DNA of 64,000 bases, from IMG/VR virus record IMGVR_UViG_3300014565_000223; one strand, given 5' to 3'. Shown here piece by piece: positions 3,535 to 46,406 of the stretch. The stretch comes from a virus. The first letter of the stretch is position 1, and every line of letters starts with the position of its first letter. The notes under the pieces were generated by a model. That model had not been told where the DNA came from, made no database searches, and saw only the letters and a list, made by a program, of their open reading frames with translations. Made by a program: the position numbers and the translations under genes.

Positions 3535-4198
3535 ATGAAAGCAGTAAGAGAAAAATTTTTAACAGTAGTAGAGGCTGAAAAGGTAACTGGAGTTCATTAT
3601 ACTGTAAATCATTCAGGGAAAATGGAAGGAATGCAGAGTTTATCAACTAGCTGCTTGTGTAATGAATATTGCAAGAATCGATCAAGCAATTCTGAACTGG
3701 TGTGTTCACATTGTTATGCACAAAGACAAATGAAAAGGTATAAAAATTTGAATGCATGCCTGGAGCGAAATACAGAGATTTTAACTAGCAGAATATTAAA
3801 GGAAGCAGAGATTCCAATGATCAATGCTTCCTTTTTTAGATTCGAGAGTTTTGGTGATTTAATTAATGTTACACAAGTTATTAATTACTTTAATATTTGT
3901 AAGAGAAACAAGCATGTACACTTTGCTTTATGGACAAAAAATCCTTGGATTATCGAAGAAGCGTTAGAGACCAGCGAAAAAAAAGCCAAGTAACTTACAG
4001 ATTATATATAGTAGCCCTTGTATTAATGATCAAGCAGATCCTGGATATGATTTTATTGATAAGATCTTTACAGTATATGATAAAGATTATATCAACGCGC
4101 GCGATGTAAATATTAATTGTGGAGCAAAGAGTTGCCTTACATGCCATAAATGTTATGTAAAAAGTAAAATAAAATATATCAATGAAAAACTGAAATAA
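3535..4198 (+). pseudogene. Gp37/Gp68 (DUF5131)-like Cys-rich protein, split by a +1 frameshift at an A8 run (3977-3984)
   Basis: N-terminal CxCx3C and CSHCYAQRQ resemble the Gp37/Gp68 family. The ORF stops at 3993, but the +1 frame continues uninterrupted to 4198 with more Cys pairs (CGAKSCLTCHKC). Confidence 0.45.
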
Positions 4199-4258
4199 AA
4201 TTTAATTATACATGATTAATAAAATAAAATATTGAAAACGTAAAAGAGGAGTGGTATA

Positions 4259-5338: not shown

Positions 5339-6168
5339 GGTTAACAAAAGAAGAAGCCAGAGCATATAAGGGATATGCTCTAACTCCTAAGCAACTCATT
5401 GAGAAAGCAAAGAAATTTTATGATGATTTAACACCCGAAGAAAGAGATGAGGAATACATTGTCTATGGAAATAATATAAAATTTGAAAAAGTGGAGGTAG
5501 AAAGGCTTACTACTGGAGAATTTTATATGCGTTGTGTTAATGACATTGAAAAAAGATATGAAGAATTTAAAAATAGGGAACGTATTTACAATTCTTCAGC
5601 TGTAGCACCATATGATCCAAGATATAAAATGGATGATTTTACAGAATCAGAAAAAATGGTAAGTTTTCTATATTATTTAATGGACAATGGATTTTCTTTA
5701 GCAATATTATATCCTGAATATCCAATCGAAGTAATAGAAATGATTTTTTGGAGTATACCGGAAGTAAGAAAGACACCACAAGAAAGAGCAGCATCAAAAA
5801 TAACAGAAGAATATACTAAGTATATAAAACCAGGAGAAAAAAATGTCGGAGGAGCAGAACTTGTTAAAAGGAGAGCGAAAGCAAACCCACCACAGACTTC
5901 TTTGACTCCAGATGAAATTGCGAGTTTTGATCGTATGAGCGAAAAATGGCTAGTAAGATGGTGCAACTTTTCTACGAATTGGTTATGGGTAGCGCCATGT
6001 TTATTATTATGTATTGTGGTGAACAAAGGACTTATTTCAGCAATTGGATTACTTTTGTTTATGGGAATTGGAGAGTGGTATTCATGGAAAGTCAAGGAAT
6101 ATTGTAGTGTGATATTGCCATGGTATCAACAAGCTGGAATTATGTTAGAGAGGAGAATGAAGTTATGA
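5335..6168 (+). CDS. hypothetical protein with C-terminal transmembrane segments
   Basis: ATGA overlap with the previous gene; hydrophobic C-terminus. Confidence 0.5.
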   Translation: MRLTKEEARAYKGYALTPKQLIEKAKKFYDDLTPEERDEEYIVYGNNIKFEKVEVERLTTGEFYMRCVNDIEKRYEEFKNRERIYNSSAVAPYDPRYKMDDFTESEKMVSFLYYLMDNGFSLAILYPEYPIEVIEMIFWSIPEVRKTPQERAASKITEEYTKYIKPGEKNVGGAELVKRRAKANPPQTSLTPDEIASFDRMSEKWLVRWCNFSTNWLWVAPCLLLCIVVNKGLISAIGLLLFMGIGEWYSWKVKEYCSVILPWYQQAGIMLERRMKL

Positions 6169-7148
6169 ATGGAAGGTTGGAGCATGAATTAAAATTAAAT
6201 AAGAATGTTAAGAAAATTCTTAATGATATGCCACAATGCGTGAGTGATTTTTATATGAGTATTCAGGCTGTTCGCAGCCCGAATACTTGTTTAAATTATG
6301 TCAGAAAACTTCATCATTTCTTAGATTATATAGATGTAGAAGATATAAGCGAAATTGACGCAGATGATATCGCAAGGTATCTGGAGCATATTAAATACGT
6401 AAAAGATGGTAATGGTGAAATTAAAAAGTCGTCTGTGGCATATACTAAATTGGTATGTTGCACATTAAATAGGTTTTTTGATTTTTTGTATCGGAGAGGA
6501 GATATTGAAAGGAATCCGATGGACAATGTAAACCGGCCTATTAGAAAAGACTCGATTAAAAGAGTGTTTTTATCAATGGATGATTTAAATGGAATATTGG
6601 GTGCCGTAAAATATTCTTACATGCCAAAAGAATGGCATTCAAGAGATTATGCTATATTATATTTATTTATGGTTACCGGCATGAGAAAAACTGCATTAAG
6701 CGAAATTAACTTAAGTGATTTAAATTTTGAGACTCACAATTTGACTATTATCGACAAGCGAGATAAAGAACAGGTATATCAATTAAATGATGATTCCATA
6801 CGTGTATTAAGAGATTGGATCCTTGATCGAGATAAAATACTATATAATATGGGGATTAAAGAGGATGCTCTTTTTATATCAAAAAATGGAAAACGTATGG
6901 ATCCACAAACGATCTATTGTATGGTAGTCAAATATGCCGAGAAAGGAATTGGTAAACATGTGTCTCCGCATAAGTTAAGAGCTGCTTTTGCTTCATTATA
7001 TTATAAGGAGACAAAAGATATCGTTGCTACGAAAAATGCTGTAGGGCATGCGGATATACAGACAACCAGTATTTATACAGTTGAAGAAAATAACTCAAGA
7101 AAGGAAGCAACGGAGTTCATGTCGAAAAATTTATCATCAAAAATATAG
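6165..7148 (+). CDS. tyrosine site-specific recombinase / integrase (XerC/D-like)
   Basis: C-terminal HKLRAAFAS and GHADIQTTSIYT fit the R..HxxR..Y catalytic signature. ATG 6165 with GGAG RBS (track start 6120). Confidence 0.75.
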   Translation: MNGRLEHELKLNKNVKKILNDMPQCVSDFYMSIQAVRSPNTCLNYVRKLHHFLDYIDVEDISEIDADDIARYLEHIKYVKDGNGEIKKSSVAYTKLVCCTLNRFFDFLYRRGDIERNPMDNVNRPIRKDSIKRVFLSMDDLNGILGAVKYSYMPKEWHSRDYAILYLFMVTGMRKTALSEINLSDLNFETHNLTIIDKRDKEQVYQLNDDSIRVLRDWILDRDKILYNMGIKEDALFISKNGKRMDPQTIYCMVVKYAEKGIGKHVSPHKLRAAFASLYYKETKDIVATKNAVGHADIQTTSIYTVEENNSRKEATEFMSKNLSSKI

Positions 7149-7174
7149 ACAAAATTAACTTTGCGTGATATAAT
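7145..7174 (+). promoter_or_regulatory. sigma70-like promoter with extended -10 (TAGACA-18 nt-TGATATAAT)
   Basis: TGATATAAT at 7166-7174. Confidence 0.5.
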
Positions 7175-7186
7175 CTGAGGAAAGAG

Positions 7187-8467
7187 GTGAGAAAAATGAA
7201 TGTCGATAGAAGTATTTTAGAAGATTATTTATCCAAAAAGTTTTTTAATATCTTAATTAATAAGAGTGAAGAACTAGAAATTTACAATTATGCATATGAG
7301 AAATATAATTATCCAAAAGGCATTTTTTCAGATTTTCTATCTAGTAGAAAGAGTATTGAAGAAGCAAATGATTATACACTTTTTGTAATTGCAGATAGTA
7401 TTTTAAATGCCACTAAGAAAGATTATCGCAAAAAGTTATCTGACTTTTTTACAGACAGAGAAATAAGTAAATATAGTGGGATGCGATACGAAGAACCAAA
7501 TAAAATTGAATTCCCGTTAGTATTCAATATGATTCAGGTAAGCGATGATCAATGGATAGGATCTTTAAATGTAGATGCATTTTGCGCTCTGCAAGAATCA
7601 GGATTAATTAACTATAATCCTGTCACACAACGTGCTATGACTAAAGTAACACGAGATAATAATGAGCTATATCGTATTACATTGAATAAGAGTGCAGTAA
7701 AAGAAATTACGGCAGATATGTTGGAACATATTTATGTTCCGGATACAATCACTTTGAATATCCCGAAAGATGATATATACGCAGATTTTCATTATGATGA
7801 GCAATCACGTCAGCTTATTATTCATTCTTTAGAGGCATTTGATATAAACGATGGATATCATAGATATGTATCAATGTTCCAGGCCAGAAGTAAAAATCCA
7901 AATTTTAACTATCCAATGGAGCTGAGAATTACAAACTTTGACATTGATAAATCTCGCCGTATGATATATCAGTATGACCAGAAAACTAAAATGAGCAAAC
8001 AGTTAAGCGACACATATAACTCATATGCAGCTCAAAATAAAGTGGTCCAGCGTATTAATGAAAGCAGTATGTGTAATTTGCAAGGGAAAATAAAAATAGG
8101 TGGACTTATTGATTCAACAACCCTGGCAGAATGTATTAAGAGATTATATTTCAGTAAAAGGCAAAGTGATTCTCCTGAGCAACGAAAAGAAATCATTAGA
8201 GTATCAAAGGAATTTATCGAAGATCTTAATATGCTTACAGAAGAAGATGACAAGTATCTTGAAAAAGAATATTCAAAGAAAGAAATTATAATTCTTACGA
8301 TCTTGTTTCATTATTATGATGGAAAAAATAAAATATCAATGATAGAGAACTATAAGCGTTTTCTTATTGATGATGCGGAACGTGAGGAAAAAATAATATA
8401 TGATTTTTCGAGAAACTTTAATAGGATAAGGAAAAGATTAATTCCTTTTTTAGAGGAGAGAATGTAA
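7187..8467 (+). CDS. hypothetical protein with a DGxHR motif (DGYHRY), ParB-like / DndB-like
   Basis: FDINDGYHRY resembles the DGQHR / ParB-nuclease signature. Otherwise unrecognised. Confidence 0.3.
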   Translation: MRKMNVDRSILEDYLSKKFFNILINKSEELEIYNYAYEKYNYPKGIFSDFLSSRKSIEEANDYTLFVIADSILNATKKDYRKKLSDFFTDREISKYSGMRYEEPNKIEFPLVFNMIQVSDDQWIGSLNVDAFCALQESGLINYNPVTQRAMTKVTRDNNELYRITLNKSAVKEITADMLEHIYVPDTITLNIPKDDIYADFHYDEQSRQLIIHSLEAFDINDGYHRYVSMFQARSKNPNFNYPMELRITNFDIDKSRRMIYQYDQKTKMSKQLSDTYNSYAAQNKVVQRINESSMCNLQGKIKIGGLIDSTTLAECIKRLYFSKRQSDSPEQRKEIIRVSKEFIEDLNMLTEEDDKYLEKEYSKKEIIILTILFHYYDGKNKISMIENYKRFLIDDAEREEKIIYDFSRNFNRIRKRLIPFLEERM

Positions 8468-9379
8468 ATGTATAACGAAGATAGAAAACAAAGGTTTTAC
8501 GAATTTAAGTTAAAAACTGTTGCAAGCGTTACTCCTCTTGTGCCTAGATTTAAGAGAGTTGCGCCGTTTGAACATATGTATCAAAAGGATTTATGTGACT
8601 TTAATTTAAATGAGATTACAGAAATGTATAAGTTGTTCAAATTTACAACATTAGAGTCCATTATTGTAGTAAATAATACTCTTACACAATATACGGACTG
8701 GTGTGTTAATGAGAATTTAGTGTTAAATGGACAAAATATCTATGCAACTATCACACCTGATATGCTGGCAGCACTATTAAATAAGACATTGTTAAATCAT
8801 CAGATTGTATCAAGAGACACGATTTTAACATGGATCGAAGCATTAAAGAATCCTAGAGATCGATTCATGATTCTGAGCATTTTTGAATATGGCAAGTCTA
8901 AAGATTTTGAAGACACGATTAGAGCAAAACTTGATGATATCGACGTAGAAAATCATACAATGAAATTGTATTCCGGAAGAGTTGTAAATGTAAGTGAAGC
9001 ATTAATTTTAACTGCACAAAAGAGTAATATGACAATGGAATTAACATATCCATATGGAACTAAATCCAAACTCATGGATGATGGAACCATTATAAAAAGA
9101 TCTCATATTGTAAAAGATGATCCGCATTGTCTTGGAAGGCAAATGTATAATTCATTAGCAGCAGCATTGAAGTCTATAGATGTATCATATATGACTGCTG
9201 AAAAAATTAACATTTCCGGACAAATTCATATGACAAATGAATTAATCCGGAAGTATAATTCAAATAAAAACAAGATTTTATATGATGTTGAAACTCGGTC
9301 TATGATTGAACACCAATATGGAATTAAGATTAATAGACCTTCATATTTTCTTAAAAAATATGGTGACTATTTAATATAG
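8468..9379 (+). CDS. hypothetical protein (303 aa)
   Basis: TAAATG junction with the upstream gene. Confidence 0.5.
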   Translation: MYNEDRKQRFYEFKLKTVASVTPLVPRFKRVAPFEHMYQKDLCDFNLNEITEMYKLFKFTTLESIIVVNNTLTQYTDWCVNENLVLNGQNIYATITPDMLAALLNKTLLNHQIVSRDTILTWIEALKNPRDRFMILSIFEYGKSKDFEDTIRAKLDDIDVENHTMKLYSGRVVNVSEALILTAQKSNMTMELTYPYGTKSKLMDDGTIIKRSHIVKDDPHCLGRQMYNSLAAALKSIDVSYMTAEKINISGQIHMTNELIRKYNSNKNKILYDVETRSMIEHQYGIKINRPSYFLKKYGDYLI

Positions 9380-9452
9380 TCGCCATGTTTAAATAAAGTA
9401 ACAAGTTAAATTAACTTTCATTAAAATCAAATTTATTACGAGGAACAAAAAA

Positions 9453-9788
9453 ATGGTTAGAGAATTTGTAAAGAATGCAAGTAAAGTAGCTCAGAAAATC
9501 GATATTATGTTTGAAAAAGCAGCATATGACAATAAAACTGTTGCGGTACATTTCTCTGTAGGAGAAAAAGAATCTGCAATAATATCTCATATGCAGTTGA
9601 ATCCAGTTAATATTACAGTAAATGATAATATTATTACTTTTGAAGAGGGAACAGCAGAGCATTATATTGATATTTCTCAGTTTGATTCAGTCAAATGTGA
9701 TGACGAGTGCGTTAACGATATCGCGGATGCAACAATTGATATGATGTGTGATCATTGGTCAGTACATTTTGATATTTTGACGATTTAA
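9453..9788 (+). CDS. hypothetical protein (111 aa)
   Basis: ORF with RBS. Confidence 0.45.
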   Translation: MVREFVKNASKVAQKIDIMFEKAAYDNKTVAVHFSVGEKESAIISHMQLNPVNITVNDNIITFEEGTAEHYIDISQFDSVKCDDECVNDIADATIDMMCDHWSVHFDILTI

Positions 9789-9812
9789 TTATACATAATA
9801 CAGGAGGAAAAA

Positions 9813-11813
9813 ATGAACAAGATTGAAGAAATGAAAGCATTGGTTGAAAAACTTAATCAGTACCGAGATGCTTATTATAATAATGCAGAAAGTATTGTTA
9901 CGGATCATCAGTATGATGATCTGTGTGATCAGTTGGAAAAAATGGAAAAAGAAACAGGAGTTATTTTAAGTAATTCTCCAGTCCATAGTGTTGGATATGA
10001 AGTAAAAAGTAAATTAGAGAAAATTGAGCATTCACATTTAATGATGTCTCTTGATAAAACTAAAGATGTGAATATACTTCGAAAATTTATTGGTGATAAA
10101 GATTCTTTGCTAATGTGTAAGATGGATGGATTGACAATTCTTTTGACGTATGAAGATGGAGAGCTGATCCAGGCTGAAACTCGCGGAAACGGCGTCACAG
10201 GAGAAATTATTACTCACAATGCAAAGGCGTTCGAAAATATTCCTATGCATATTAATCAGAAAGGCCACGTTGAAATTGAAGGAGAAGCTATTATTACATA
10301 TACAGATTTTGAGAAAATTAATAATTTAATTAAACACGAAGAAGATAGATATAAGAACCCGCGAAATCTTGCTTCAGGATCAGTCAGACAGCTAGATAGT
10401 AAGATAGCAGCCAAACGTCATGTTCGTTTTATAGTATGGAAGGTACCTGCCGGTATGGATGAACTACCTTTAATGTCAGCAAGATTTGAAAAAGCAAGAG
10501 AACTTGGATTTGATATTGTACCCTATATTCGTGTATATAAAGAAAATCAGAATCTTGAAGAGCTTATTAATCTGTTAAAGGAAAAGGCAGCATACTTATC
10601 TTATCCAATTGATGGGCTTGTTGCTGCATATAATGATATCGCTTATGGATTATCACTTGGAGTCACAGATAAGTATCCACGTCATTCTCTGGCATACAAG
10701 TTCTATGATGATGAATTTGAGACAGTTTTGACTGATATTGAATGGACTATGGGTAAATCTGGACAATTAACGCCTACAGCAGTTTTTGAACCGGTCGATA
10801 TTGATGGAACATCTGTAAGCAGAGCGAGTCTACACAATGTGAGTATATTCAAAGGATTTTATCTCCATAAATATGATACCGTATCTGTGTATAAGGCAAA
10901 CCAGATAATTCCGCAGATTTCTCAAAACATAACAAGAGGTTATAATACCGGTGAAAAGTTTATAATTCCTAAAATATGTCCAATCTGTGGAGAACCAGTG
11001 TCTGTCGTAAAAGAGAACGATTCTGAAGTATTGATGTGCATGAATGCTGGATGCAAAGGCAAACTTTTGGGTGAGATGAATGCTTTTGTAGGGAAAAAGG
11101 CCCATGATATTAATGGATTATCTGAGGCCACATTGCAGCTATTGATTGATACTGGGCTTGTGACATCACCAATTGATCTGTATTATTTGAAGGATCATTC
11201 TACAGAATTGTCCAGATTACCTAGAATGGGAGCAAAGAAAATTGCGAATATTTTAGATTCTATTGAGTCTAGCAGGAATACTACCATAGAAAAATTTATT
11301 GTAGGATTAAATATTCCGTTAATTGGTGGTAGAGCTGCAAAGGATATTGCTAGATATGAAGAAATAAGAACCAGGGAATTAGGAATGCTATATCCATTTG
11401 AAACTTTTATTAAAGATGCTGCTTCTGATTTTAATTTTACCTGTATTGAAGGATTAGGGACGGAGCGAAATATTTCTATCCATAGATATTTTAAGGAAAA
11501 TTATGATTACGTTGTTGCTTTGGCAGAACAGTTCATATTTTCGAAACTTAATAATGATAAAATATCTTCTGAAAGCGATTCATTGTCCGGAAAGAAATTC
11601 TGTATCACTGGGAAGTTACATATTTTTGCTAACCGGGATGAACTTGTGGCGGATATAGAATCAAAAGGAGGGAAAGTTGTGTCCGGAGTTACAAAGGCAA
11701 CTGATTATCTAATTACCAATGATAAAAACAGTGGATCTAGTAAAAATAAGAAAGCTTCTGAGTTGAATATTCCTATTATCAGTGAAGAAGAATACAAAAA
11801 CAAATTAAATTAA
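9813..11813 (+). CDS. ligA: NAD+-dependent DNA ligase
   Basis: KMDGL adenylation motif, CPICGEP...C..C zinc finger, HhH region and C-terminal BRCT (GKKFCITGKL). N-terminus typical of LigA. Confidence 0.9.
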   Translation: MNKIEEMKALVEKLNQYRDAYYNNAESIVTDHQYDDLCDQLEKMEKETGVILSNSPVHSVGYEVKSKLEKIEHSHLMMSLDKTKDVNILRKFIGDKDSLLMCKMDGLTILLTYEDGELIQAETRGNGVTGEIITHNAKAFENIPMHINQKGHVEIEGEAIITYTDFEKINNLIKHEEDRYKNPRNLASGSVRQLDSKIAAKRHVRFIVWKVPAGMDELPLMSARFEKARELGFDIVPYIRVYKENQNLEELINLLKEKAAYLSYPIDGLVAAYNDIAYGLSLGVTDKYPRHSLAYKFYDDEFETVLTDIEWTMGKSGQLTPTAVFEPVDIDGTSVSRASLHNVSIFKGFYLHKYDTVSVYKANQIIPQISQNITRGYNTGEKFIIPKICPICGEPVSVVKENDSEVLMCMNAGCKGKLLGEMNAFVGKKAHDINGLSEATLQLLIDTGLVTSPIDLYYLKDHSTELSRLPRMGAKKIANILDSIESSRNTTIEKFIVGLNIPLIGGRAAKDIARYEEIRTRELGMLYPFETFIKDAASDFNFTCIEGLGTERNISIHRYFKENYDYVVALAEQFIFSKLNNDKISSESDSLSGKKFCITGKLHIFANRDELVADIESKGGKVVSGVTKATDYLITNDKNSGSSKNKKASELNIPIISEEEYKNKLN

Positions 11814-11822
11814 CTTTTACTA

Positions 11823-11851
11823 TTGACAAATGCAAATAATGGTGATATAGT
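11823..11851 (+). promoter_or_regulatory. sigma70-like promoter TTGACA-17-TATAGT
   Basis: Consensus -35, 17-nt spacer. Embedded in the repeat AAATTAAATTAACTTTTACTATTGACA. Confidence 0.6.
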
Positions 11852-11899
11852 TGACCTATCAAAACGAATTAGATTAACTCAATCAGAAAGGCATGAACA

Positions 11900-12532
11900 A
11901 TGATATGTTACTATTTAAAAGGAAAAAATGGAGAGTACATCGCAAGAGATCCAACAGGAAGAATCAAATTAGTATCTGATCTTGGTGATGCACTCTTGGT
12001 TCCTGAAATTGAAAAGAAAAAGATTAAGGCAATTCAAGCAAATAATATTCCAGACGTATTAAAAAAATTTGGACCATATGAAATTTGTGAAACCGATTAT
12101 AATGGAGTTGAAGCAATTACGACAGATGATATAGTTGGTGAAATTATCGGTAGTATAAATGAATTTTCAAGTAAGATGAATGAAATTACTGATTATTCAA
12201 AAGAACTTAATTCTATTATTTCATATACTGATTTACAAATTTCAGACATTTTGCATTATATTGAATTTCATAAGTTTTCTGCGGCAGAAGGATATAAATT
12301 ATGCAAAAAGTTGCAAGAGATTTGTGATAGACGAAGAGAAGCCAAAAATAAAATACAAATTATAAACACGATAAAACATCAATCGTGTGCAAGTGTTTTA
12401 TCTGGAAATGCTACTAAAATAATAGAAAAAATTGTACCAGATAAAAAATATACTCCAAGAGTATTTGATGAATTGTTCAAAAAGAATCAGTCACGAATAA
12501 GAAAAGAAAAATCAGTGAAAATAAAAATTTAA
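11900..12532 (+). CDS. hypothetical protein (210 aa)
   Basis: ORF. Confidence 0.45.
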   Translation: MICYYLKGKNGEYIARDPTGRIKLVSDLGDALLVPEIEKKKIKAIQANNIPDVLKKFGPYEICETDYNGVEAITTDDIVGEIIGSINEFSSKMNEITDYSKELNSIISYTDLQISDILHYIEFHKFSAAEGYKLCKKLQEICDRRREAKNKIQIINTIKHQSCASVLSGNATKIIEKIVPDKKYTPRVFDELFKKNQSRIRKEKSVKIKI

Positions 12533-12555
12533 TTAAACAATAAGGAGATAAAAAT

Positions 12556-14622
12556 ATGTTTAAAGATTTTGTAAAGGCAATCCAGAAAAATTTACAGCAG
12601 ATGTCTAAAGATTCTTCAAGATTATTCACAGTAAATGTGGATACCGAGGAGCTTTATAATTTATATCTGGATTCGTTTCCGGCAGGTACAAATGAAATTT
12701 ACAGAGAAAGAAGAGAATATGACTGTAGTTGCTGTAGACATTTTATCAGAGACGTTGGTAACGTTGTATCTATTAAAAATGGTGAGTTACATACCATTTG
12801 GGGAATTAATCCAGTATCAGATGATAAATATAATGTAGTCGCAGCTGCGCTTGATGCCTATGTAAAACAGAAAGCGGTATTAGGGGTATTCCTCAAAAAA
12901 GAGAAACGAATTGGTACTCCTGAAAATAGAGAAATGCTCCCGACAGGAAAAATTAATAAATACGAGCATTTCTTCGTAGATCTGCCAGAAATTTGTATCT
13001 TTAAGGAATGTTATGGACATACACTTGAAGGTGATTTAAGTCAATTCAGAGATGTCCGTAATGTATTTAAACGTTCTCTTGATGAAATTAGTAAAGAAGC
13101 TGTAGATACTGTACTTGAACTGATTGCTCAAAATTCTTTATATAAAGGTGCCGAATGGAAAAAGCAACTTACTGAATTTAAGAATTATCAGAAAGAATAT
13201 GGAAAGCTTACGGATGAACAGAAAGAACTTTGGATCTGGGAAAAGTCAATTGCTGCAGGTGCCGTTATCGGTAAGATTCGTAACCATAGTATTGGAACAT
13301 TGCTGGTAAATATTTCCGAAGGAATGGATCTTGACCTTGCCGTTAGAAAATATGAGCAGATTGTAGCCCCTGTAAATTATAAACGTCCAAAGGCAATTTT
13401 TACAAAGAAGATGCTTGAAGATGCAAAGAAGACTATTACAGAACTTGGTTATATGGATTCATTACAGAGAAGATTTGCTACCTTGGATGATATCACAGTG
13501 AACAATATACTTTTCTCTAATAAAGACGCAGCAAAGAGAATTACCGGCGCTATGGATTTGTTTGATGAAATGGAACAGGATGTTGCAATTGATCCAAAAC
13601 GATTCTCTAAGGTAGAGGAAATAAGTGCAGAAGATTTCATTAAGAATGTTCTGCCTGTAGCGAAAGAATTGGAAGTATATTTGGAGAATAAACATATTCA
13701 GAATATGGTATCTTTGATTGCTCCAGAAGTTGCTGATGCGAAAACAATGTTCAAATGGAACAATGGAATGTCTTGGGCGTATACCGGTAATATTACAGAT
13801 TCAGATATCAAAGAAAATGTAAAAGCTGCTGGTGGTTCAGTCACAGGCATTGTAAGATTTTCTATTCAATGGAATGATAAAGATGGAAAGGATAATTCTG
13901 ACCTTGATGCACATTGTATTGAACCAAAAGGTGGAGAGCATATTTATTTTGGTCACAAAAAAGCACGATCCGGTGGAGAATTGGATATTGATATTACTCA
14001 GCCAGTTGATCAGTGCTGGAATAGTAATGGAGTTGCCGTTGAAAATATTACATTTCCATCTAAAGAACGCATGATTCCTGGTACATATAAGTTTTTTGTA
14101 AATCAGTTCGCATACAGAGGATCTCAGGGATTTAAAGCCGAAATCGAAGTAAATGGAGAAATTCATTCTTATGAATATAATACTCCAGTACGTGGCGATG
14201 TAGATGTTGCAGAAGTAATTCTTGATCAGGCAGGTAATTTTAAAATTGTGGACAAACTTCCAGGAAATTGTTCTATGATCAGTAAAGATGTATGGGGAAT
14301 TAAAACTCTGCAGTTTACACCGGTATCTGTTGTATGCTACTCACCAAATTACTGGGATGAACAGAAGGGAATTGGTCATCAGCACTTATTCTTTATGCTG
14401 AAGGACTGCATCAATCCAGAAGAGCCGAATGGATATTATAATGAATTCTTGAAACCGGAACTTGAGCAGCACCGAAGAGTATTTGAAGCGCTTGGAGCAA
14501 AAGCACATGTAAAAGATGTTGATGATCAGCTTTCAGGAGTAGGATTTTCACTTACAAAGAGAAATGATCTAATTATTAAAGTAAAAGGCGCTACAGAGCG
14601 AGTATTAAAAATCAAATTCTAA
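12556..14622 (+). CDS. large hypothetical protein (688 aa) with N-terminal CSCCRHF motif
   Basis: AAGGAGATAAAAATATG RBS. Confidence 0.55.
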   Translation: MFKDFVKAIQKNLQQMSKDSSRLFTVNVDTEELYNLYLDSFPAGTNEIYRERREYDCSCCRHFIRDVGNVVSIKNGELHTIWGINPVSDDKYNVVAAALDAYVKQKAVLGVFLKKEKRIGTPENREMLPTGKINKYEHFFVDLPEICIFKECYGHTLEGDLSQFRDVRNVFKRSLDEISKEAVDTVLELIAQNSLYKGAEWKKQLTEFKNYQKEYGKLTDEQKELWIWEKSIAAGAVIGKIRNHSIGTLLVNISEGMDLDLAVRKYEQIVAPVNYKRPKAIFTKKMLEDAKKTITELGYMDSLQRRFATLDDITVNNILFSNKDAAKRITGAMDLFDEMEQDVAIDPKRFSKVEEISAEDFIKNVLPVAKELEVYLENKHIQNMVSLIAPEVADAKTMFKWNNGMSWAYTGNITDSDIKENVKAAGGSVTGIVRFSIQWNDKDGKDNSDLDAHCIEPKGGEHIYFGHKKARSGGELDIDITQPVDQCWNSNGVAVENITFPSKERMIPGTYKFFVNQFAYRGSQGFKAEIEVNGEIHSYEYNTPVRGDVDVAEVILDQAGNFKIVDKLPGNCSMISKDVWGIKTLQFTPVSVVCYSPNYWDEQKGIGHQHLFFMLKDCINPEEPNGYYNEFLKPELEQHRRVFEALGAKAHVKDVDDQLSGVGFSLTKRNDLIIKVKGATERVLKIKF

Positions 14623-14655
14623 TACAATTTAATTAAACAAAGAAGGGAGAAAGTT

Positions 14656-15150
14656 ATGAAATTTAAAGAAGCATTTGAAGAAATGAAATCTGGAATTCCA
14701 GTAAAACTTCCGTCATGGGCGGGTTATTGGTGGTGGGATGAAGAATCCCAGACAATCCTTATGTACACAAAAGATGGCGGCTGTCTGGATATAAGAGAAA
14801 CACAGAATGTGGAGTATACGCTTCAGAATATTCTTTCCGATGAGTGGGTTTATGCGGATAGTCGGAACTGTCCAATACTTGGTGGAGAAGCAACATTCTC
14901 ATTCGGAGAAGCGATTAAGTACCTGAAAAGAGGTATGAAAGTAGCGAGAAAAGGATGGAATGGAAAGAAACAGTACATTCAGCTTGCTACTGGGATTTCA
15001 TATAAGACTACTGACGACGAGATTGTAAATTGTGAGCATGATGCAATCGGAAATAAAGCCATCGCTTTTGTTGGAACATCTGGCGTACAGATGGGATGGC
15101 TTGCTACCCAGTCTGATATGCTCGCAGAAGACTGGATGTTTGTTAAATAA
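14656..15150 (+). CDS. DUF2829-like protein, tandem duplicated module
   Basis: MKFKEAFEEMKSG...WAGYWW and FGEAIKYLKRGMKVARKGWNGK both match the DUF2829 (Gp49-like) signature. Confidence 0.5.
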   Translation: MKFKEAFEEMKSGIPVKLPSWAGYWWWDEESQTILMYTKDGGCLDIRETQNVEYTLQNILSDEWVYADSRNCPILGGEATFSFGEAIKYLKRGMKVARKGWNGKKQYIQLATGISYKTTDDEIVNCEHDAIGNKAIAFVGTSGVQMGWLATQSDMLAEDWMFVK

Positions 15151-16107: not shown

Positions 16108-18729
16108 ATGAAGAACGGCTTATCAAATGAACAGGTCGAAGAGAGTCGAAGATTACATGGAAGTAACAAGCTTCCTGAACCTGAATTGAAAAAATGGTAT
16201 CATTTTGCTAAGGAAGCATTAACTGAACCAATTACTATGATTCTAATAATAATTGCTTTATTCCAGTTAGTTTTAGGAGCTATGGGAGTAATGTCTCTTT
16301 CTGAACCTGTAATGATTATAGTAGTTTTAGCTATTGTTACTGAAATTGCTGTTAAGACAGGTCTAGGCATACAGAAATCTGCAGCAGAGTTAAGAGCAAA
16401 AACGGCAGTTAGATATTGTGATGTTGTCCGAGATGGAAGCGTACAGACAATTAATAAAGATGATCTGGTAGTAGGTGATTTAGTTCTATTGAGAACTGGA
16501 CAAGAGATTTTCGCAGATGGTTTTATTGTTGAAGGAGAAATTTCTGTTAATAATGCCGCTATCAATGGAGAGACAAAAGAATGTAGAAAAATTCCTAGTG
16601 CTAATTATAAACATGTTAAAACAACATCTACTGCTGCATATACGGATCAGTGTTCTCTCTTTGCAGGAACAGTTATTATGTCTGGTGAAGGAAAAATGAT
16701 TGTTACAGATGTTGGTGTTAATACAGTTAACGGTGATACTCTTGTCAAAATGCAGACTTTAGAGCCTCCTAAGACAGCTCTTGATATTGCTCTGGATCAT
16801 TTGTGTGATTTTATTTCAAAATGGGGAACAATTGCGGCAGCATTAGCATTTGTAATTATGACAATTGCAGGTATCTTAAATGCTGGAAGTTTAAGTCAGT
16901 ATTTCTCAGGAAACATTCTTGAAAATATTCAGAAAGTAGCACAGAATACCTCAAATGCATTAACAATTATTGTTGCGGCTGTACCGGAAGGTCTGCCACT
17001 CATTGTAAAACTTGTAACTAAACAGAATGTATCGACAATGGAAAAATTTAATATTCTTGCGAAGAATACTGGTAAAATTCCTGAATTGGCGTATGTTAAT
17101 TTAATTTGTACGGATAAGACAGGAACTCTCACAACAGGTGAAATGACTCCGGTAGCTATGATCAGTGGAGATTGTCATGATATTCTTAACGAGAAAAATG
17201 CGCTCAGACAAATGATTGATGTAAATATCTGTATGAATAATAGTGCAGTATTTGATTCCAATGGAAATATTACTGGTGGAAACTCTATTGACAGAGCAGT
17301 TCTTGGTATGATTACTCCAGAAGAAGTAAATGATATCAGCAATAGATTTAATATTAAAGAAAAACTTCCATTTAGCAGTAAAAATAAATATTCTTCTATT
17401 ACGTTAAACGATGAAGAAAATAATATTCTGAAATTTTATAAAGGTGCTCCAGAGAAAATCATTGCTAAATGTACACACATTGTTGATGCAGACGCACATT
17501 TAAGGGAATTTAAAGAAGAAGATAAAAATGAACTAAAATCATATATAAAAGGTATGACAGAAAAAGCAATGAGGTGTATTGCTTTAGCGGTATCAAATGA
17601 ATCAAATGATAGTGAATTGCCAGATATGGGATTGCTTGGTGTGATTGGTGTTGTGGATCCGGTTAGAAATGAGGTGCCAGAAGCTGTGAGTATAGCACAT
17701 AAAGCCGGTATACAAGTAATTGAAATCACCGGAGACTGCATGGAAACAGCAAAAGCAGTTGCAGCAGAAGCAGGTATTTATAAACCTGGAGATCTTGCAA
17801 TTACAAATGATGAATTTGAAGCAATAACAGATGAAAAAGCGAAAGAAATTATTCCGGATTTAAGAGTAATCTCCAGATGTTCACCAAATACAAAGCTTCG
17901 TCTTGTAACATTAGCACAAGAAATTGGAATGTCTGTTGCTATGACCGGTGACGGTGTAAATGATGCGCCTGCACTAAAGAAAGCAGATGTAGGCTTTGGA
18001 ATGCAGGATGGGTCTGATGTGGCAAAAGAAGCAGCAGATATTGTTTTGACAGACAATAATTTTGCAAGTGTGGTAAAGGCAGTCGAACTTGGTAGAACAT
18101 TTATGCATAACATTATGATGTTCCTTGAATTCCAGCTGCCTATCAATATTTCGTTGTTGATCTTAAGTATGGTATTTCCAATTATTTCTGGTGGCTCTGC
18201 TCTATTAGCAGCAGTTCAGATCCTTATTGTAAATATCATCATGGATTCACTTAACTCATTAAGCTTTGGTGGAGAACCGCCAAAAGAGGAATATATGAAT
18301 GAAGAACCTATCATGAAAGGATCCGGATTATTTATCCGTGGAGCGAAAGGGAGAATTGCATTAAGTTCAATTGTATTTATTGCTTTATTTGGTGTAATTA
18401 CATTTGGTCCAGTTGGAAATATGTTTGCAACAAAACTTTCGGCTATGACAGCGAGATTCGCTTTATTGTGTTTAATGGCAGTATTTAATGGATTCACTAT
18501 TAGAACAGATAGTATGAATCTTTTCAAAGGAATTAAAAATAACAAATTATTTGTGTATATCGCATTGGGTATTTTTGCAATGACTGTAGTTTTGTGTAAC
18601 TTTGTAGGAAATCTAGTACAGACAACTCCAATGGATGTTAAACAGTGGATTATAGTCTTAGTGACAGCATTTATGGTTGTGCCTGTAGATTGGATTAGAA
18701 AAGCAATTTGTAAGAAAGGAAGTAACTAA
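16108..18729 (+). CDS. P-type cation-transporting ATPase (type II, Ca2+-ATPase-like)
   Basis: DKTGTLT phosphorylation site, PEGLP in M4, TGDxxxTA, GDGVNDAPALKKADVG hinge. ~10 TM segments; 873 aa. Confidence 0.9.
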   Translation: MKNGLSNEQVEESRRLHGSNKLPEPELKKWYHFAKEALTEPITMILIIIALFQLVLGAMGVMSLSEPVMIIVVLAIVTEIAVKTGLGIQKSAAELRAKTAVRYCDVVRDGSVQTINKDDLVVGDLVLLRTGQEIFADGFIVEGEISVNNAAINGETKECRKIPSANYKHVKTTSTAAYTDQCSLFAGTVIMSGEGKMIVTDVGVNTVNGDTLVKMQTLEPPKTALDIALDHLCDFISKWGTIAAALAFVIMTIAGILNAGSLSQYFSGNILENIQKVAQNTSNALTIIVAAVPEGLPLIVKLVTKQNVSTMEKFNILAKNTGKIPELAYVNLICTDKTGTLTTGEMTPVAMISGDCHDILNEKNALRQMIDVNICMNNSAVFDSNGNITGGNSIDRAVLGMITPEEVNDISNRFNIKEKLPFSSKNKYSSITLNDEENNILKFYKGAPEKIIAKCTHIVDADAHLREFKEEDKNELKSYIKGMTEKAMRCIALAVSNESNDSELPDMGLLGVIGVVDPVRNEVPEAVSIAHKAGIQVIEITGDCMETAKAVAAEAGIYKPGDLAITNDEFEAITDEKAKEIIPDLRVISRCSPNTKLRLVTLAQEIGMSVAMTGDGVNDAPALKKADVGFGMQDGSDVAKEAADIVLTDNNFASVVKAVELGRTFMHNIMMFLEFQLPINISLLILSMVFPIISGGSALLAAVQILIVNIIMDSLNSLSFGGEPPKEEYMNEEPIMKGSGLFIRGAKGRIALSSIVFIALFGVITFGPVGNMFATKLSAMTARFALLCLMAVFNGFTIRTDSMNLFKGIKNNKLFVYIALGIFAMTVVLCNFVGNLVQTTPMDVKQWIIVLVTAFMVVPVDWIRKAICKKGSN

Positions 18730-18730: not shown

Positions 18731-19498
18731 ATGGGATTTTTGGGAAAATTATTCGGAAAAAAAGATGAGGAAACAGCAGTAGAGTTATCTTCTGCTGTAA
18801 CTCAGCAACCTGTATATGAAGAAAAATTACAGACAATTGATATGTCTAAGCACAATGAAAATCTTGGCAAAGTACTTATTGATATGTCTAAGGGAAGCAA
18901 GATTGATATGACAAAACATACGGCTAGAGTAGCTCTTGCAATGGATTATTCAGGAAGTATGGATTGGCTGTATGATAATGGATCTGTACAGGAAACCATT
19001 TCTCGTTTGTTGCCTATTGCTCTAAGATTTGACGATAATGGAGAACTTGAGAGTTGGCTGTTCTCAAATGGAGCAGAGCGCTTAAAAGCTGCTAACGCTG
19101 ATAATTATAGTAGTTATGTTAAAAATGTTATGAAAAAAGCTCATATGTATATGGGTGGTACTAATTATGCTCCTGTATTGAAAGAAATGGTTACATATTA
19201 TAAAGATATCGAGCCAAGTGAGATTCCAGCATTTATCATCTTTATTACAGATGGTGAGAACAGTGATACTTTTGCCACCAATGCAGTTATTAAAGAGCTT
19301 TCAGAGTACAACATCTTCGTGCAGTTCATAGGAATTGGAGATGAAGATTTTGACTATTTAAAATCTCTTGATGGTATGAAAGGTAGAAAACATGACAACA
19401 CCGGTTTTACAGCAGTAAAAGACATGAATAAAATGTCTGATGAGCAGCTGTATACAGAGATTCTTCGTCAGTATAAAGATTGGCTCAATAAAAAATAA
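18731..19498 (+). CDS. von Willebrand factor A domain protein (TerY-like)
   Basis: MIDAS-like DYSGSM; sits beside a TerD-domain gene. Confidence 0.6.
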   Translation: MGFLGKLFGKKDEETAVELSSAVTQQPVYEEKLQTIDMSKHNENLGKVLIDMSKGSKIDMTKHTARVALAMDYSGSMDWLYDNGSVQETISRLLPIALRFDDNGELESWLFSNGAERLKAANADNYSSYVKNVMKKAHMYMGGTNYAPVLKEMVTYYKDIEPSEIPAFIIFITDGENSDTFATNAVIKELSEYNIFVQFIGIGDEDFDYLKSLDGMKGRKHDNTGFTAVKDMNKMSDEQLYTEILRQYKDWLNKK

Positions 19499-19557
19499 TT
19501 CTATACTGTAAATAATAAATTATATATAAATAACGTAAATTAAAGGAGATTAAGATT

Positions 19558-20196
19558 ATGGCAACAATTAATATGAGCAAAAAACAGAAAATCAGTATGA
19601 CAAAGGAAGATGGATCTGCAGTAAAGAATTTTTTTATTGGTGTGAACTGGGAGCAAAATAGATATGCCGGAGAAGCCGATATTGATTTTGACATCAATGG
19701 AATGCTTACTAATGGAGATCGGAAGGTGACATATCCGGGAGATTTGGTAAATTATAATACATATGGAGATGGATCTGCTTATCCGTGGATTGATTATTCC
19801 GGAGATAATCTCACTGGAAATGATTCTCAGGGCATGATGTTTAATGGAAAACATTACGATGAATATTTTATTGTCCACGCAGATCAGTTTCCGGAGAATA
19901 AAACAGACTTTACCATTTGTCTTACTATTTTTAGAGCGGTACAGCGCCTTCAGAATTTTGGTATGGTAAGTAATGCAACTATAATGATCTGTGATTATGA
20001 TAATCCAGACGGAGATAAGTACGAATATAATCTGTCTGAGAATGAGAATTTTGAAAATCTGAACGCTGTAGAGATGGGAAGGCTTTATAAATACGGAGAT
20101 GGATTTAAATTCCAGGCACTTGGATCAGGATATACCGGAGGAATGACAGAATTGTTTAAGAATTTCGGTCTTGACATTGATGAGGGAAGGGATTAA
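19558..20196 (+). CDS. TerD-domain protein
   Basis: ISMTKEDGSAVKNFFIGVNWE...DIDFDINGML matches the TerD/CAPAB signature (GLgWD...DLD). Confidence 0.6.
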   Translation: MATINMSKKQKISMTKEDGSAVKNFFIGVNWEQNRYAGEADIDFDINGMLTNGDRKVTYPGDLVNYNTYGDGSAYPWIDYSGDNLTGNDSQGMMFNGKHYDEYFIVHADQFPENKTDFTICLTIFRAVQRLQNFGMVSNATIMICDYDNPDGDKYEYNLSENENFENLNAVEMGRLYKYGDGFKFQALGSGYTGGMTELFKNFGLDIDEGRD

Positions 20197-20198
20197 TC

Positions 20199-20942: not shown

Positions 20943-20943
20943 A

Positions 20944-21036: not shown

Positions 21037-21048
21037 AGGAGAAAAATT

Positions 21049-21570
21049 ATGGGATTTACATTATTTGGAGAAAAATATAAATATGAAGTAGACAGTATTA
21101 ATATTGGGATTTTTTGTCCAGATGGGACATTATTAATAGTTTTAAAACTTAAAGATGGTACATATAAATCAATTGATGTTAATCTTGGAGCAGAAAAATA
21201 TAAGTCATTATGCAAAGAGAATAACATTACAAACAATGTGCCGGTTCTTGTTACACAAGAACATGTTAATAAATTAGATAAAGAAATAAAACCTAAGTAC
21301 AAATGGGGAGACTGGAAAGAAGGTTACACTTTTTTTATGGATCCATTTTCTCGTAGAGAAAAACTATTAGTATATAATGTTAGAACTAATGGTAAGAGAG
21401 TGCAGGTAGAATTCGACGGTGTAAAAGCTATGGCTTCTTGTAATATTGAAGCAGGAGATCAATTTGATTATAAGTTTGGTAGGGAACTGGCAGAGCGAAG
21501 ATTGATTGCGAAATTGATTGAGAAACGTGCAAATTCATATTATATAAGCAAAATCAACAAAACAAATTAA
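21049..21570 (+). CDS. hypothetical protein (173 aa)
   Basis: AAGGAGAAAAATTATG RBS. Confidence 0.5.
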   Translation: MGFTLFGEKYKYEVDSINIGIFCPDGTLLIVLKLKDGTYKSIDVNLGAEKYKSLCKENNITNNVPVLVTQEHVNKLDKEIKPKYKWGDWKEGYTFFMDPFSRREKLLVYNVRTNGKRVQVEFDGVKAMASCNIEAGDQFDYKFGRELAERRLIAKLIEKRANSYYISKINKTN

Positions 21571-21584
21571 ATTAACTTTGCATA

Positions 21585-21613
21585 TTGACAAACGAAACTT
21601 GATATGCTATACT
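21585..21613 (+). promoter_or_regulatory. sigma70-like promoter TTGACA-17-TATACT
   Basis: Consensus hexamers. Part of the repeat AAATTAAATTAACTTTGCATATTGACA, upstream of the tRNA. Confidence 0.6.
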
Positions 21614-21710
21614 AAATACATAGTCAAGGATGACAACAGCACAGAGGAGTGAAAGCTCCCTGTGCTAAATAAAAAGAAGAAAGAAATTTAATTATACAAA
21701 CAATGAATGT

Positions 21711-21795: not shown

Positions 21796-21874
21796 TTTGG
21801 CAAGTATTTTATACAAATATACTCCAGCCGAATTGCAGAGAAATATAATTTAATTATACAAAAAGGAGATAAAA

Positions 21875-24613: not shown

Positions 24614-24621
24614 GGTTAGAT

Positions 24622-39618: not shown

Positions 39619-40388
39619 AGTCAGAATTATTTAAAAACGAATTAAAAACAATTACTTCAGATGATATTCGTGATTTTGCAAAAGTTGTTTTGGACGATGC
39701 CCCAGACTATTTTTTCAAAGTTGCGGCAAGTTCTACAGGTAAATATCACCCGGCATACGCGCTGGGTGATGGCGGTTTAATGCGTCATACAAAAGCAGTA
39801 TTAAGGATTTACAATTATATCATCGGATTAGAACAGTACCAGAATCAGTTTGATGAGAGATGGATAGATCTTGGACGTGTTGCTTGTTTGGCACATGATA
39901 TTCAAAAGTCTGGTACTGCAGAAATATATGAAGAAAAGGCAAAGGATGGAAAAAAGGTGTTTACTGTATTTAATCATCCGTTGTTGGCAGCAGAATATAT
40001 TCGTAATTATAAAGGATTATATCTCGAAGATGATGAACTTGAGATTATTGCTGATGCTGTTTCGTCTCATATGGGACAATGGAACACAAGTGATAGAGAA
40101 AGTATTGTATTACCAAAGCCAAAATCACAGTTAGGGAAAATTGTACATGTAGCAGATTATTTGGCTTCCAGAAAAGACATTGATATTTCTTTTAAAGATG
40201 ATACTGATGCATATGATTTACCGGATATTGAGACATACAAATGTCCATACAAAAAGCATAAGGATGAATTACTGACAGATGTTGCAAAGACAGATCCTGA
40301 GTATCTGGAGTGGCTACATGAAAATGTTAATATGAGAGAACCTATGAAAACATTCGTAAATGAACTTTTAAAAAATAAAACAAATTAA
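39615..40388 (+). CDS. HD-domain phosphohydrolase
   Basis: H...HD metal-binding signature (KYHPAY...LAHDIQK). Confidence 0.65.
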   Translation: MKSELFKNELKTITSDDIRDFAKVVLDDAPDYFFKVAASSTGKYHPAYALGDGGLMRHTKAVLRIYNYIIGLEQYQNQFDERWIDLGRVACLAHDIQKSGTAEIYEEKAKDGKKVFTVFNHPLLAAEYIRNYKGLYLEDDELEIIADAVSSHMGQWNTSDRESIVLPKPKSQLGKIVHVADYLASRKDIDISFKDDTDAYDLPDIETYKCPYKKHKDELLTDVAKTDPEYLEWLHENVNMREPMKTFVNELLKNKTN

Positions 40389-40402
40389 ATTAACTTTTAC
40401 TA

Positions 40403-40431
40403 TTGACATCAGAAACCTATAGTGCTATTAT
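40403..40431 (+). promoter_or_regulatory. sigma70-like promoter TTGACA-17-TATTAT
   Basis: Consensus -35. Within the repeat CAAATTAAATTAACTTTTACTATTGACA. Confidence 0.55.
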
Positions 40432-40479
40432 AATGGCACAGGGAAAACAAATTAAATTAACTCAAGGAGATATGTAGAC

Positions 40480-45425: not shown

Positions 45426-46406
45426 ATGGCAGAAATTACAATGAAATCAACAAAGGCAGAAATTATGGAAGCGTATAAGGCAGCAGTGGAGAAACTTGAT
45501 ACAAGAGACCGAATGATTGATGATCCTGCAAAAGAAGCAGCGAAGGCTAAAAAGGTAGAAGTTATCGAATCTGCAGATAAAACAGCTAAAGAAGATATTT
45601 TTAATCCGGAGATTATCAAGAAGTACAATGATCTTACAGAAGCAATTACAATGAAGCAGATTGAACTGGATGATCTTTATGGAATTGAAGCAAAAGCCAA
45701 TGCTATGGCAGCTATGATCAATGCTTATAAAGAGAAAAATGAAGAGTTAAAAGAGGCTCAGGCAGCGAAAGAAGCAGAGATTGAAGCTGAATTAGGAGAG
45801 AAAAAAGACACACTGAGAGCTGAAATTGAGTCGCTGAAGCAGCAGAAACAGGAAATTATTGATTCTATCAATGCAGAAGCTAAAGCAAGAGAAAATGAAA
45901 TTAAATTAACTCGTAGTCGTGAGGAAGATGAATACACCTATAATCTGAAACGCAGTCGTAAAGCTGAAAATGATAAATGGGAAGATGAGAAAGCTGCTAG
46001 AGAAAAGATTTTGGAACTTAGAGAAACAGCGGCTCTTGAGAAAGAAACAGAACTGAATGCAAAAGCTGATCATGTAAAGGAATTAGAAGCAAAAGTAGAA
46101 GAGATTCCGACATTGATTGCAGCAGCAACAGAGGAAGGTATTAAAAAAGGTAAAGCCGATGCTGATAAATCAAATGCTTTTGAAGTTAGAGCACTTAAGA
46201 AAGATGCTGAATATCAGAAACAGCTTCTGGAAGATAAAAATGAAAGACTTGCAGAGGATCTGGCTAATGCGAGAGCAGAAAAAGTTGAATTACAGCAGAA
46301 ACTTGACGATGCATATGCTCAGATGAGAGAACTTGCTGCTAAGACTGTAGAATCTACCGGTGGAGTTAAAATTCTGAACGGACAGACTCAGCAGAATAAT
46401 AAATGA
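45426..46406 (+). CDS. long coiled-coil protein (326 aa), Lys/Glu/Ala-rich
   Basis: GAAAAAGGAGAACTAAAAACATG RBS; heptad character throughout. Confidence 0.5.
   Translation: MAEITMKSTKAEIMEAYKAAVEKLDTRDRMIDDPAKEAAKAKKVEVIESADKTAKEDIFNPEIIKKYNDLTEAITMKQIELDDLYGIEAKANAMAAMINAYKEKNEELKEAQAAKEAEIEAELGEKKDTLRAEIESLKQQKQEIIDSINAEAKARENEIKLTRSREEDEYTYNLKRSRKAENDKWEDEKAAREKILELRETAALEKETELNAKADHVKELEAKVEEIPTLIAAATEEGIKKGKADADKSNAFEVRALKKDAEYQKQLLEDKNERLAEDLANARAEKVELQQKLDDAYAQMRELAAKTVESTGGVKILNGQTQQNNK

Follow-up and report, generated by a model that had tools for sequence, protein, structure and literature searches.

MrpR, the master repressor of SPbeta, binds a repeated element (SPBRE) in about ten promoter regions, both in vivo and in vitro (PMC10516654). 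The Phi3T repressor SroF is a monomer that encircles the DNA at a 26-bp asymmetric AT-rich box, of which it reads 24 bp including A-tracts (bioRxiv 10.1101/2025.11.27.690993), and the yopP-yopQ-yopR operon has been called unique to the Bacillus SPbeta-like group (PMC8612738). The characterization of integrase-fold repressors with long asymmetric boxes dates from 2023-2025 and is confined to SPbeta-like phages of Bacillus. Here we describe box R, a 19-nucleotide (nt) repeat that accompanies three promoters in 64,000 nt of viral DNA (IMG/VR record IMGVR_UViG_3300014565_000223; this whole stretch is termed the window), together with a gene of the same repressor family. On balance, we favor the reading that the boxes are SPBRE-like operators, which bracket sigma-A promoters and are bound by a MrpR/SroF-type repressor, the gene of which lies 2.4 kb upstream of the first promoter. 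The pair would then represent a recently described kind of repressor and operator, here in a new phage clade and host group.

The SPBRE sites, as read directly from the SPbeta genome, occupy distinct positions. At yonX the order is box, TTGATT-17-TATAAT, box and ribosome-binding site (RBS), with 64 nt between the two copies, and yosX has a box pair 68 nt apart. The aimR box lies a few bases upstream of the -35 element, the genes yorE, yonP, yorM, yorZ and yosX display the arrangement TAGAC-box-TATAAT, and the boxes of yopV and yopM sit just 5' of the RBS. All these boxes are co-oriented with the downstream gene.

Dispersed operators are also known from other phages. The stoperators of mycobacteriophage L5 (cluster A, repressor gp71) are reportedly many asymmetric sites with one orientation relative to transcription, which are said to lie in short intergenic gaps, often over stop codons, with one at the early promoter; repressor and site specificity reportedly diverge together between heteroimmune relatives. 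The monomer-type repressor C1 of phage P1 acts on asymmetric AT-rich 17-bp operators that are spread across its large genome and in part form pairs at promoters.

Box R and its three promoters

The arrangement AAAACAAATTAAATTAACT-TTnnnTA-TTGACA-17 nt-TGnTAT..T, of which none is expected by chance, is found at 11797, 21559 and 40377 (sites A, B and C, respectively). The 55-nt composite AAAACAAATTAAATTAACTTTNNNTATTGACA-N14-TGNTATNNT, which can also be written AAAACAAATTAAATTAACTTT-N3-TATTGACA-N14-TGnTATnnT, has exactly three matches (11797-11851, 21559-21613 and 40377-40431), all on the + strand, and was contained in 0 of 100 dinucleotide-preserving shuffles. An earlier note on this DNA, which had placed three copies of a repeat at 11800, 21561 and 40381, is borne out by these exact matches; its gap of 3 to 6 nt between AACTTT and TATTGACA narrows to its lower limit, exactly 3 nt in each copy. 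The spacing from box to -35 is fixed. As had been claimed, the TAA stop of the upstream gene lies inside the box at all three sites, where the ligase ends in ...EEYKNKLN*, open reading frame (ORF) 21049-21570 in ...SKINKTN* and ORF 39615-40388 in ...LLKNKTN*, so that the latter two are the genes said to end in KTN*. The tRNA assigned to the copy at 21585 is a tRNA-Gln (21710-21796), about 90 nt downstream of the promoter.

The -10 hexamers of the three promoters are TATAGT, TATACT and TATTAT, each preceded by TGn, which identifies them as extended -10 elements of the type typical of Firmicutes. Only five window sites reach a score of 11/12 with TG, namely 4232, 7146 and the three box-linked promoters. 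As a class, sigma-70-like matches show no enrichment (in 1-20 kb, 100 were counted where 106.6 are expected); what speaks for the three promoters is their quality and conservation rather than the scan.

Box R is asymmetric and AT-rich, with four perfect and three to four imperfect copies over 38 kb, eight out of nine on the + strand; its 18-mer has nine window matches with up to three mismatches, against 0.92 expected. The copies at 40444, 11861, 9398 and 45893 and a half-box in the spacer of the 7146 promoter were not in the earlier note. The boxes and promoters are as follows.

11797..11815, + strand: upstream box R of site A, overlapping the end of the NAD-ligase gene (last codons and stop codon, the latter at 11811-11813)
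11823..11851, + strand: sigma-A-type promoter A, TTGACA, 17-nt spacer, extended -10 TGATATAGT
11861..11879, + strand: downstream box R of site A, 17/19 match, at about +4 to +22, 64 nt after the upstream copy
21559..21577, + strand: upstream box R of site B, overlapping the stop of ORF 21049-21570
21585..21613, + strand: sigma-A-type promoter B, TTGACA, 17 nt, TGCTATACT
21684..21698, + strand: box of the AT-rich class M2, AAATTTAATTATACA, 11 nt 5' of tRNA-Gln
40377..40395, + strand: upstream box R of site C, overlapping the stop of the HD-domain ORF 39615-40388
40403..40431, + strand: sigma-A-type promoter C, TTGACA, 17 nt, TGCTATTAT
40444..40462, + strand: downstream box R of site C, 19/19 match, 67 nt after the upstream copy
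9398..9416, + strand: solo R-like box GTAACAAGTTAAATTAACT, 16/19 match
7146..7174, + strand: promoter TAGACA-17-TGATATAAT, with the half-box AAATTAACTTTG within its spacer
45893..45911, + strand: intragenic box copy inside ORF 45426-46406, function uncertain

The pairs 11797/11861 and 40377/40444 form the top local direct-repeat family of the window. Counted from a putative start about 7 nt past the -10, the upstream box spans about -61 to -43, and the downstream box starts at about +4 to +7 and reaches about +25. At sites A and C this second, co-oriented box lies between promoter and RBS, directly 5' of the latter: at site A it precedes the RBS of ORF 11900-12532, and at site C it adjoins the CAAGGAG (RBS) of the ThyX-like gene 40480-41232. 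The M2 box at 21684 is the positional equivalent at site B. The solo box at 9398 sits between a hairpin and the RBS of ORF 9453-9788, 19 nt past the MrpR-like stop codon. The 7146 promoter lies 5' of the DndB/YopQ-like and MrpR-like genes. The intragenic copy carries AAATTAAATTAACTC, the same as in the downstream-copy form, and is unchanged in the 93% lineage L053 despite differing synonymous sites nearby.

The leader of site B contains a strong conserved hairpin (21638-21666) between promoter 21585 and the tRNA-Gln, which has no Rfam match; the 90-nt leader folds with -22.3 kcal/mol (z-score -5.5). As the hairpin is followed by an A-run rather than a T-run, it is not a standard terminator.

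Orthologous loci were fetched via neighboring proteins, hence without bias toward the box, which gave 23-24 loci per site. Among the unique sequences (15 for site C and 12 for site A), the variable columns of each element were counted.

Upstream box: 0/19 at site C, 0/19 at site A
Linker: 5/7 at site C, 1/7 at site A
-35: 0/6 at site C, 0/6 at site A
Spacer, the 14 nt before TGn: 10/14 at site C, 8/14 at site A
TGn-10: 1/9 at site C, 0/9 at site A
Downstream box: 0/19 at site C, 3/19 at site A

In the 92% lineage L201, the downstream box of site A has the consensus form GAAACAAATTAAATTAACT. Only linker and spacer vary among the relatives of site B, which were retrieved by the exact box and are thus informative for their promoter part only. 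The solo box at 9398 is invariant in nine unique orthologous sequences while the bases downstream vary, and the 7146 promoter is also conserved. Invariant boxes and promoter elements amid variable linkers and spacers indicate that both are under selection. This footprint supports the sigma-A reading, since -35 and TGn-10 are kept in orthologous loci where the spacer drifts, and the proposal of host sigma-A-type promoters is thus backed at the level of sequence; that the three fire early, as had also been suggested, is plausible. The footprint also marks the box as a functional element of its own. The description as a stop-spanning sequence fused to a promoter is incomplete: the box recurs downstream of two promoters, stands alone at 9398, and is laid out as SPBRE boxes are.

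A MrpR-type protein and the boxes of related lineages

The candidate for a protein that reads these boxes is encoded in a three-gene module upstream of the ligase.

6120-7148, + strand: tyrosine-integrase gene, YopP-like (Phage_integrase)
7187-8467, + strand: DndB/ParB-Srx-like gene, YopQ-like, just 5' of the repressor gene
8468..9379, + strand: gene of an integrase-fold protein of the MrpR/YopR/SroF family (303 amino acids), the candidate trans-acting factor

The 8468-9379 protein matches the Pfam family MrpR_N_CB (1e-16, 61.8 bits against a cutoff of 27), and the identical database protein P0001 carries PF22822 and PF22823 in precomputed annotations. A phmmer search of the PDB returned 9rd5, 8bjv and 8a0a with E-values from 7e-6 to 5e-5. 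The AlphaFold2 (AF2) model has a predicted local distance difference test (pLDDT) score of 89.8, and its top seven Foldseek hits are all MrpR/YopR/SroF structures (E 4e-13 to 4e-9, including 8a0a, 8bj6, 9rd5 and 9rgl), whereas ordinary tyrosine recombinases score 2e-3 or worse, about nine orders of magnitude behind. Superposition on the DNA-bound Phi3T SroF (9rd5) gave a template-modeling (TM) score of 0.83 and a root-mean-square deviation of 3.6, with the best fit to the closed conformation. Residues K297 and Y298 are invariant among 13 homologues. The order integrase, DndB-like, MrpR-like is the yopP-yopQ-yopR order of SPbeta (SPbeta annotation; PMC8612738), and is kept in the lineages L207-L212 and in phage c-st.

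The likeness to SPbeta extends beyond this integrase-fold homologue and its gene order. Every position class of the SPbeta boxes has a counterpart in the window, including the unusual TAGACA -35 at 7146; the boxes of both are asymmetric, AT-rich, dispersed, multi-copy and co-oriented, and the box-promoter-box pairs lie 64-68 nt apart in SPbeta and 64 and 67 nt apart in the window. By contrast, the window phage presumably has a gut bacterium as host instead of Bacillus, it has the extra and commoner box class M2 with the same core, and neither arbitrium genes nor a Sar-like antirepressor were identified in the window. ORF 9453-9788 (orf111, 111 amino acids) was considered as a Sar/YopT antirepressor, a role that neither sequence nor fold supports: its AF2 model (pLDDT 78.8) has no Sar/YopT match and finds ChuX at best (E 7e-3); an antirepressor could be encoded elsewhere in the phage.

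A further counterpart is found in the toxin-converting phage c-st of Clostridium botulinum (AP008983), a plasmid-like prophage, where CST029 and CST030, annotated as homologues of YopQ and YopR, respectively, a small ORF and the NAD ligase CST032 follow in the same order. Its region 19071-33589 (L214) has ten AAATTAAATTAA sites with at most one mismatch in 14.5 kb, all on the + strand; three closely precede TTGACA, and the other seven closely precede an RBS. One box, AACAAAATTAAATTAAAAAATAGTTGACA, comes directly after the ligase gene, as at site A. The repressor homologue differs: the alignment covers the N-terminal 57% of the query, with an identity of about 27%. We found no published account of the c-st boxes. 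A phage related to c-st has been called pseudolysogen-like (PMC3622972).

The window boxes resemble the L5 stoperators in orientation, placement and co-divergence with the repressor. However, the L5 repressor is a helix-turn-helix protein with GC-rich sites of 13 bp, and as there is no homology to it the window phage is not a member of the stoperator family. With P1 C1 the likeness lies in the dispersed asymmetric AT-rich operators, some in promoter pairs; the fold is unrelated, and neither a sequence nor a structural match was obtained.

Comparison of lineages revealed that the boxes change in concert. Where the ThyX-like gene is more distantly related (63-68% identity), a direct repeat likewise flanks the promoter on both sides, with another sequence in each case: TTGAAACTATCAATAATAAATTTT in L138, AAACAACTAATCAATATTA in L136 and ATAATGTAAAATTTGAAAA in L135. 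The repeat of the L138 lineage also occurs at the tRNA locus, at a gene of 698 amino acids, and singly before other genes, and the divergent lineage L149/L159 has its own flanking box 11 nt before the tRNA. The two copies within a pair match at 15-20 of 20 positions; for boxes compared between lineages, the average is 11 matches and the maximum 14. Two copies that drifted independently would not stay alike while changing, which argues for a sequence-specific trans-acting factor that differs between lineages.

The repressor gene also differs between lineages. An IMG/VR search with the single protein reached only alleles of at least 92% identity and one at 33%, and the divergent alleles were obtained through the protein database and contig look-ups. 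In five syntenic lineages, counting the window, pairwise identity of the repressor alleles is 46-59%, and every lineage has a box of its own; the four divergent alleles are 49-59% identical to that of the window and 46-58% among themselves. Their site-A promoter boxes are AAATAACTGYAATAATTAAA in L208 (66 nt apart), AAATAGTGAAATTAAATTT in L210, ATAATTAAATTAGC in L212 and AATAGTAAAATTAATCA in L209. Behind the repressor gene and within the spacer of the dndB promoter, too, every divergent lineage shows a box type of its own; the half-box in that spacer varies among lineages (AACT, AGTC, AAGC). Between the window and L208, protein identity is 65% for dndB, 59% for mrpR and 66% for orf111 against 83-98% in the flanks, and the DNA profile has a separate, isolated dip to 71-73% (flanks 87-98%) at the site-A intergenic region, 2.4 kb from mrpR. 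Such paired dips are the pattern expected of an immunity determinant with dispersed operators. The change of box type with repressor allele in five lineages gives indirect support for binding of the boxes by the repressor, and suggests that the 8468-9379 protein binds box R and, if it acts as its relatives do, represses transcription there.

ORF 9453-9788 co-diverges with the repressor (66, 53 and 55% identity against flanks of 82-98%) and is possibly its partner. It has the conserved motifs CDDEC and HFDI and no Pfam or PDB match. In the lineages L207 and L211, the repressor alleles of which are 33-36% identical, the promoter before the DndB-like gene is still sigma-A-like and L211 keeps the TAGACAAAATTA start; flanking repeats are less clear in both.

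We propose the following mechanism. The three sites would serve a large uncultivated gut phage as extended -10 promoters for host sigma-A. The integrase-fold repressor encoded at 8468-9379 may clamp the AT-rich box as a monomer, like its relatives on their 24-26-bp boxes, and when seated on both sides of a promoter it would block binding of RNA polymerase or promoter escape; bound repressor could also stop read-through from the upstream gene. The operon downstream of the ligase, the tRNA/ATPase operon and the nucleotide-metabolism operon would stay silenced until the repressor is removed.

The window extends the repressor family, the gene module and the box-promoter-box design to abundant uncultivated human-gut phages (about 100-250 kb) and to c-st. 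If the proposed binding is true, this design would be a general feature of large Firmicute phages, the alleles (46-59% identical, each with its own boxes) would provide a natural series for how the integrase fold reads 20-26 bp of AT-rich DNA, and the operons that the repressor would hold silent (ligase-downstream, tRNA/ATPase and nucleotide-metabolism) are named.

The M2 motif and competing explanations

A second, commoner AT-rich motif at gene starts, M2, has the sequence (A)ATAAAATTWAATTAWACA, with the pattern (A)ATAAAATT[T/A]AATTA[T/A]ACA. At least 14 copies are present, all of them immediately 5' of an RBS or, at the tRNA-Gln, 11 nt upstream, and the motif often overlaps the stop codon of the preceding gene.

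4198, 9781, 12525, 14625, 21017, 21684 and 21846, + strand: M2 sites
22994, 25751, 28285, 39587, 45382, 46407 and 50700, + strand: further M2 sites

The core AAATTWAATTA occurs at 16 window sites against 1.35 expected, 15 of the 16 on the + strand. The earlier note had set the repeat apart from the AT-rich motif class, which is only partly right, as the core of box R, AAATTAAATTA, falls in this same AAATTWAATTA family. In the lineages L210 and L212, a single motif, namely the flanking box of that lineage, fills both the M2 and the promoter-flanking positions. M2 as an ordinary sigma-A promoter was ruled out, since neither a conserved -35 nor any other upstream element accompanies it.

A third motif type, ATACTGTAAATAATAAATTATATATAAATA, occurs singly at 19503-19532 before the TerD-domain gene 19558-20196 and contains the T4-late-like TATAAATA. 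L159 has an identical copy, and the flanking boxes of the lineages L138 and L208 are similar to it.

Several observations weigh against binding of the boxes by the 8468-9379 protein. The core of box R is common to the M2 motif, which L208 keeps unaltered in spite of its different repressor allele and flanking box, and the core recurs in c-st despite its distant homologue; a core that is kept across alleles and c-st is perhaps read by a different conserved factor or as DNA shape. The repressor is only 16-18% identical to those of SPbeta and Phi3T, and the window box is unrelated in sequence to SPBRE (AAATACAAAWAATATGTATA). Specificity could instead be determined by the DndB-like gene or by orf111, both of which co-diverge with mrpR. 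ORF 9453-9788 next to the repressor lacks the Sar/YopT fold, and a PDB sequence search with it gave no match. In 185,579 reference bacterial genomes, neither the MrpR-like protein nor a 13-sequence alignment detected a relative or a prophage copy, which gives no support to a temperate lifestyle of the window phage. The core may be read by DNA shape or through conserved contacts, with the flanks giving specificity, or M2 may serve another factor.

The last point leads to the strongest competing explanation, which we regard as unlikely: a different phage factor binds the boxes, R is a subclass of M2 and a promoter or activator site of a phage-specific transcription factor or polymerase, and the three loci combine host and phage-specific promoters for two temporal modes of expression. 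The shared core, enriched as it is, speaks for this explanation, as do the location of M2 before RBSs and 11 nt before the tRNA-Gln, just as downstream R copies stand before RBSs, the single motif in both kinds of position in L210 and L212, the retention of M2 between window and L208 with their unlike repressor alleles, and the -10-like TAAAAT within M2. However, M2 lacks a conserved -35 or other upstream element, no phage sigma factor or polymerase was identified among the ~29 window proteins scanned, the box copy upstream of a strong sigma-A promoter is left unexplained, and the same triple placement is documented for the SPbeta repressor box.

A role of the upstream copy as an UP element contacted by the alpha subunit of RNA polymerase, with the downstream copies as incidental AT-rich leader, is improbable. 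Its position at -61 to -43 and its A-tracts would fit, and all three promoters are near-consensus; but an UP element tolerates sequence variation, whereas 19/19 positions are invariant here beside a variable linker, and it accounts neither for the near-identical downstream copy nor for the joint change of both copies between lineages. An UP-element role and an operator role could coexist in the same box.

That the box acts in RNA, in processing, stability or translational control at the 5' end of the transcript or the 3' end of the upstream message, we hold to be highly improbable. The downstream copies do begin a few bases past the predicted start and abut the RBS, and all copies are on the transcribed strand; against this, there is no RBS for the tRNA-Gln box to act on, the upstream copy and the 7146 spacer half-box are in DNA-regulatory positions, and the homologous SPbeta system acts on DNA. 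It is barely conceivable that the promoters belong to a mobile or recombining cassette of which the direct repeats are scars or handles (target-site duplications or module-shuffling homologies). Repeats of 19-24 nt do bracket each promoter, and in L005 divergence is far greater in the upstream gene than from the box onward; however, apart from the hexamers the repeats enclose unrelated sequences, the 23-24 orthologous loci per site show no presence/absence polymorphism, and both copies are under purifying selection. The related idea of boxes as breakpoints of gene replacement is weak, as L005 and L052 carry the same upstream gene, merely diverged.

The operator reading, in which the MrpR-type protein binds box R, can be widened to M2, and this extension we consider doubtful. 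R and M2 boxes together (more than 20 sites with the AAATTWAATTA core in 64 kb) might act across the whole genome as a network of roadblocks, at which integrase-fold repressors clamp as monomers, with allele-specific flanks giving a heteroimmune series. Nearly all R and M2 sites are co-oriented with transcription and stand at operon starts. Were this true, the same logic would reach from phages of gut Clostridia to c-st, and maintenance of a toxin phage would be under a SroF-type switch.

The phage and further features of the window

All window genes are on the + strand and include those of NAD ligase, DnaE, a RecD-like helicase, NrdD and four tRNAs; the latter were the only matches of an Rfam scan. 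Among isolated phages, megablast of 9800-14700 gave no match and a search in distant mode only partial matches of 64-69%, which indicates that the window phage has no annotated close relative. By DnaE, the closest isolates are Clostridioides phages of the phiCD211 type (45% identity) and large Bacillus siphoviruses. Many near-identical contigs are present in IMG/VR; they measure 100-250 kb and derive from human-gut samples.

An exact 18-mer search of IMG/VR returned, among the matches listed, mostly an unrelated motif of marine phages, and it gives no measure of boxes per genome. In at least about 50 IMG/VR loci and in L001, L002, L004 and L008, mostly marine viral contigs, AAACAAATTAAATTAACTTAAATTAAA(T)AAAATG lies right before an ORF of 90-105 amino acids that is rich in charged residues. 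The exact 18-mer that this group has in common with the window is probably due to chance in AT-rich leader sequence.

Accessory genes of the window encode a Tad2-like anti-Thoeris domain protein (14656-15150), a P-type cation ATPase (16108-18729), the TerD-domain protein (19558-20196) and an enzyme of the NAMPT/NAPRTase family (55413-56888). A GP88-like ORF in the 3535-4258 region has 152 amino acids in the window, compared to 220 in L208, L209 and L212, and the 265-nt gap that follows it (3994-4258) may be the decayed 3' part of this ORF.

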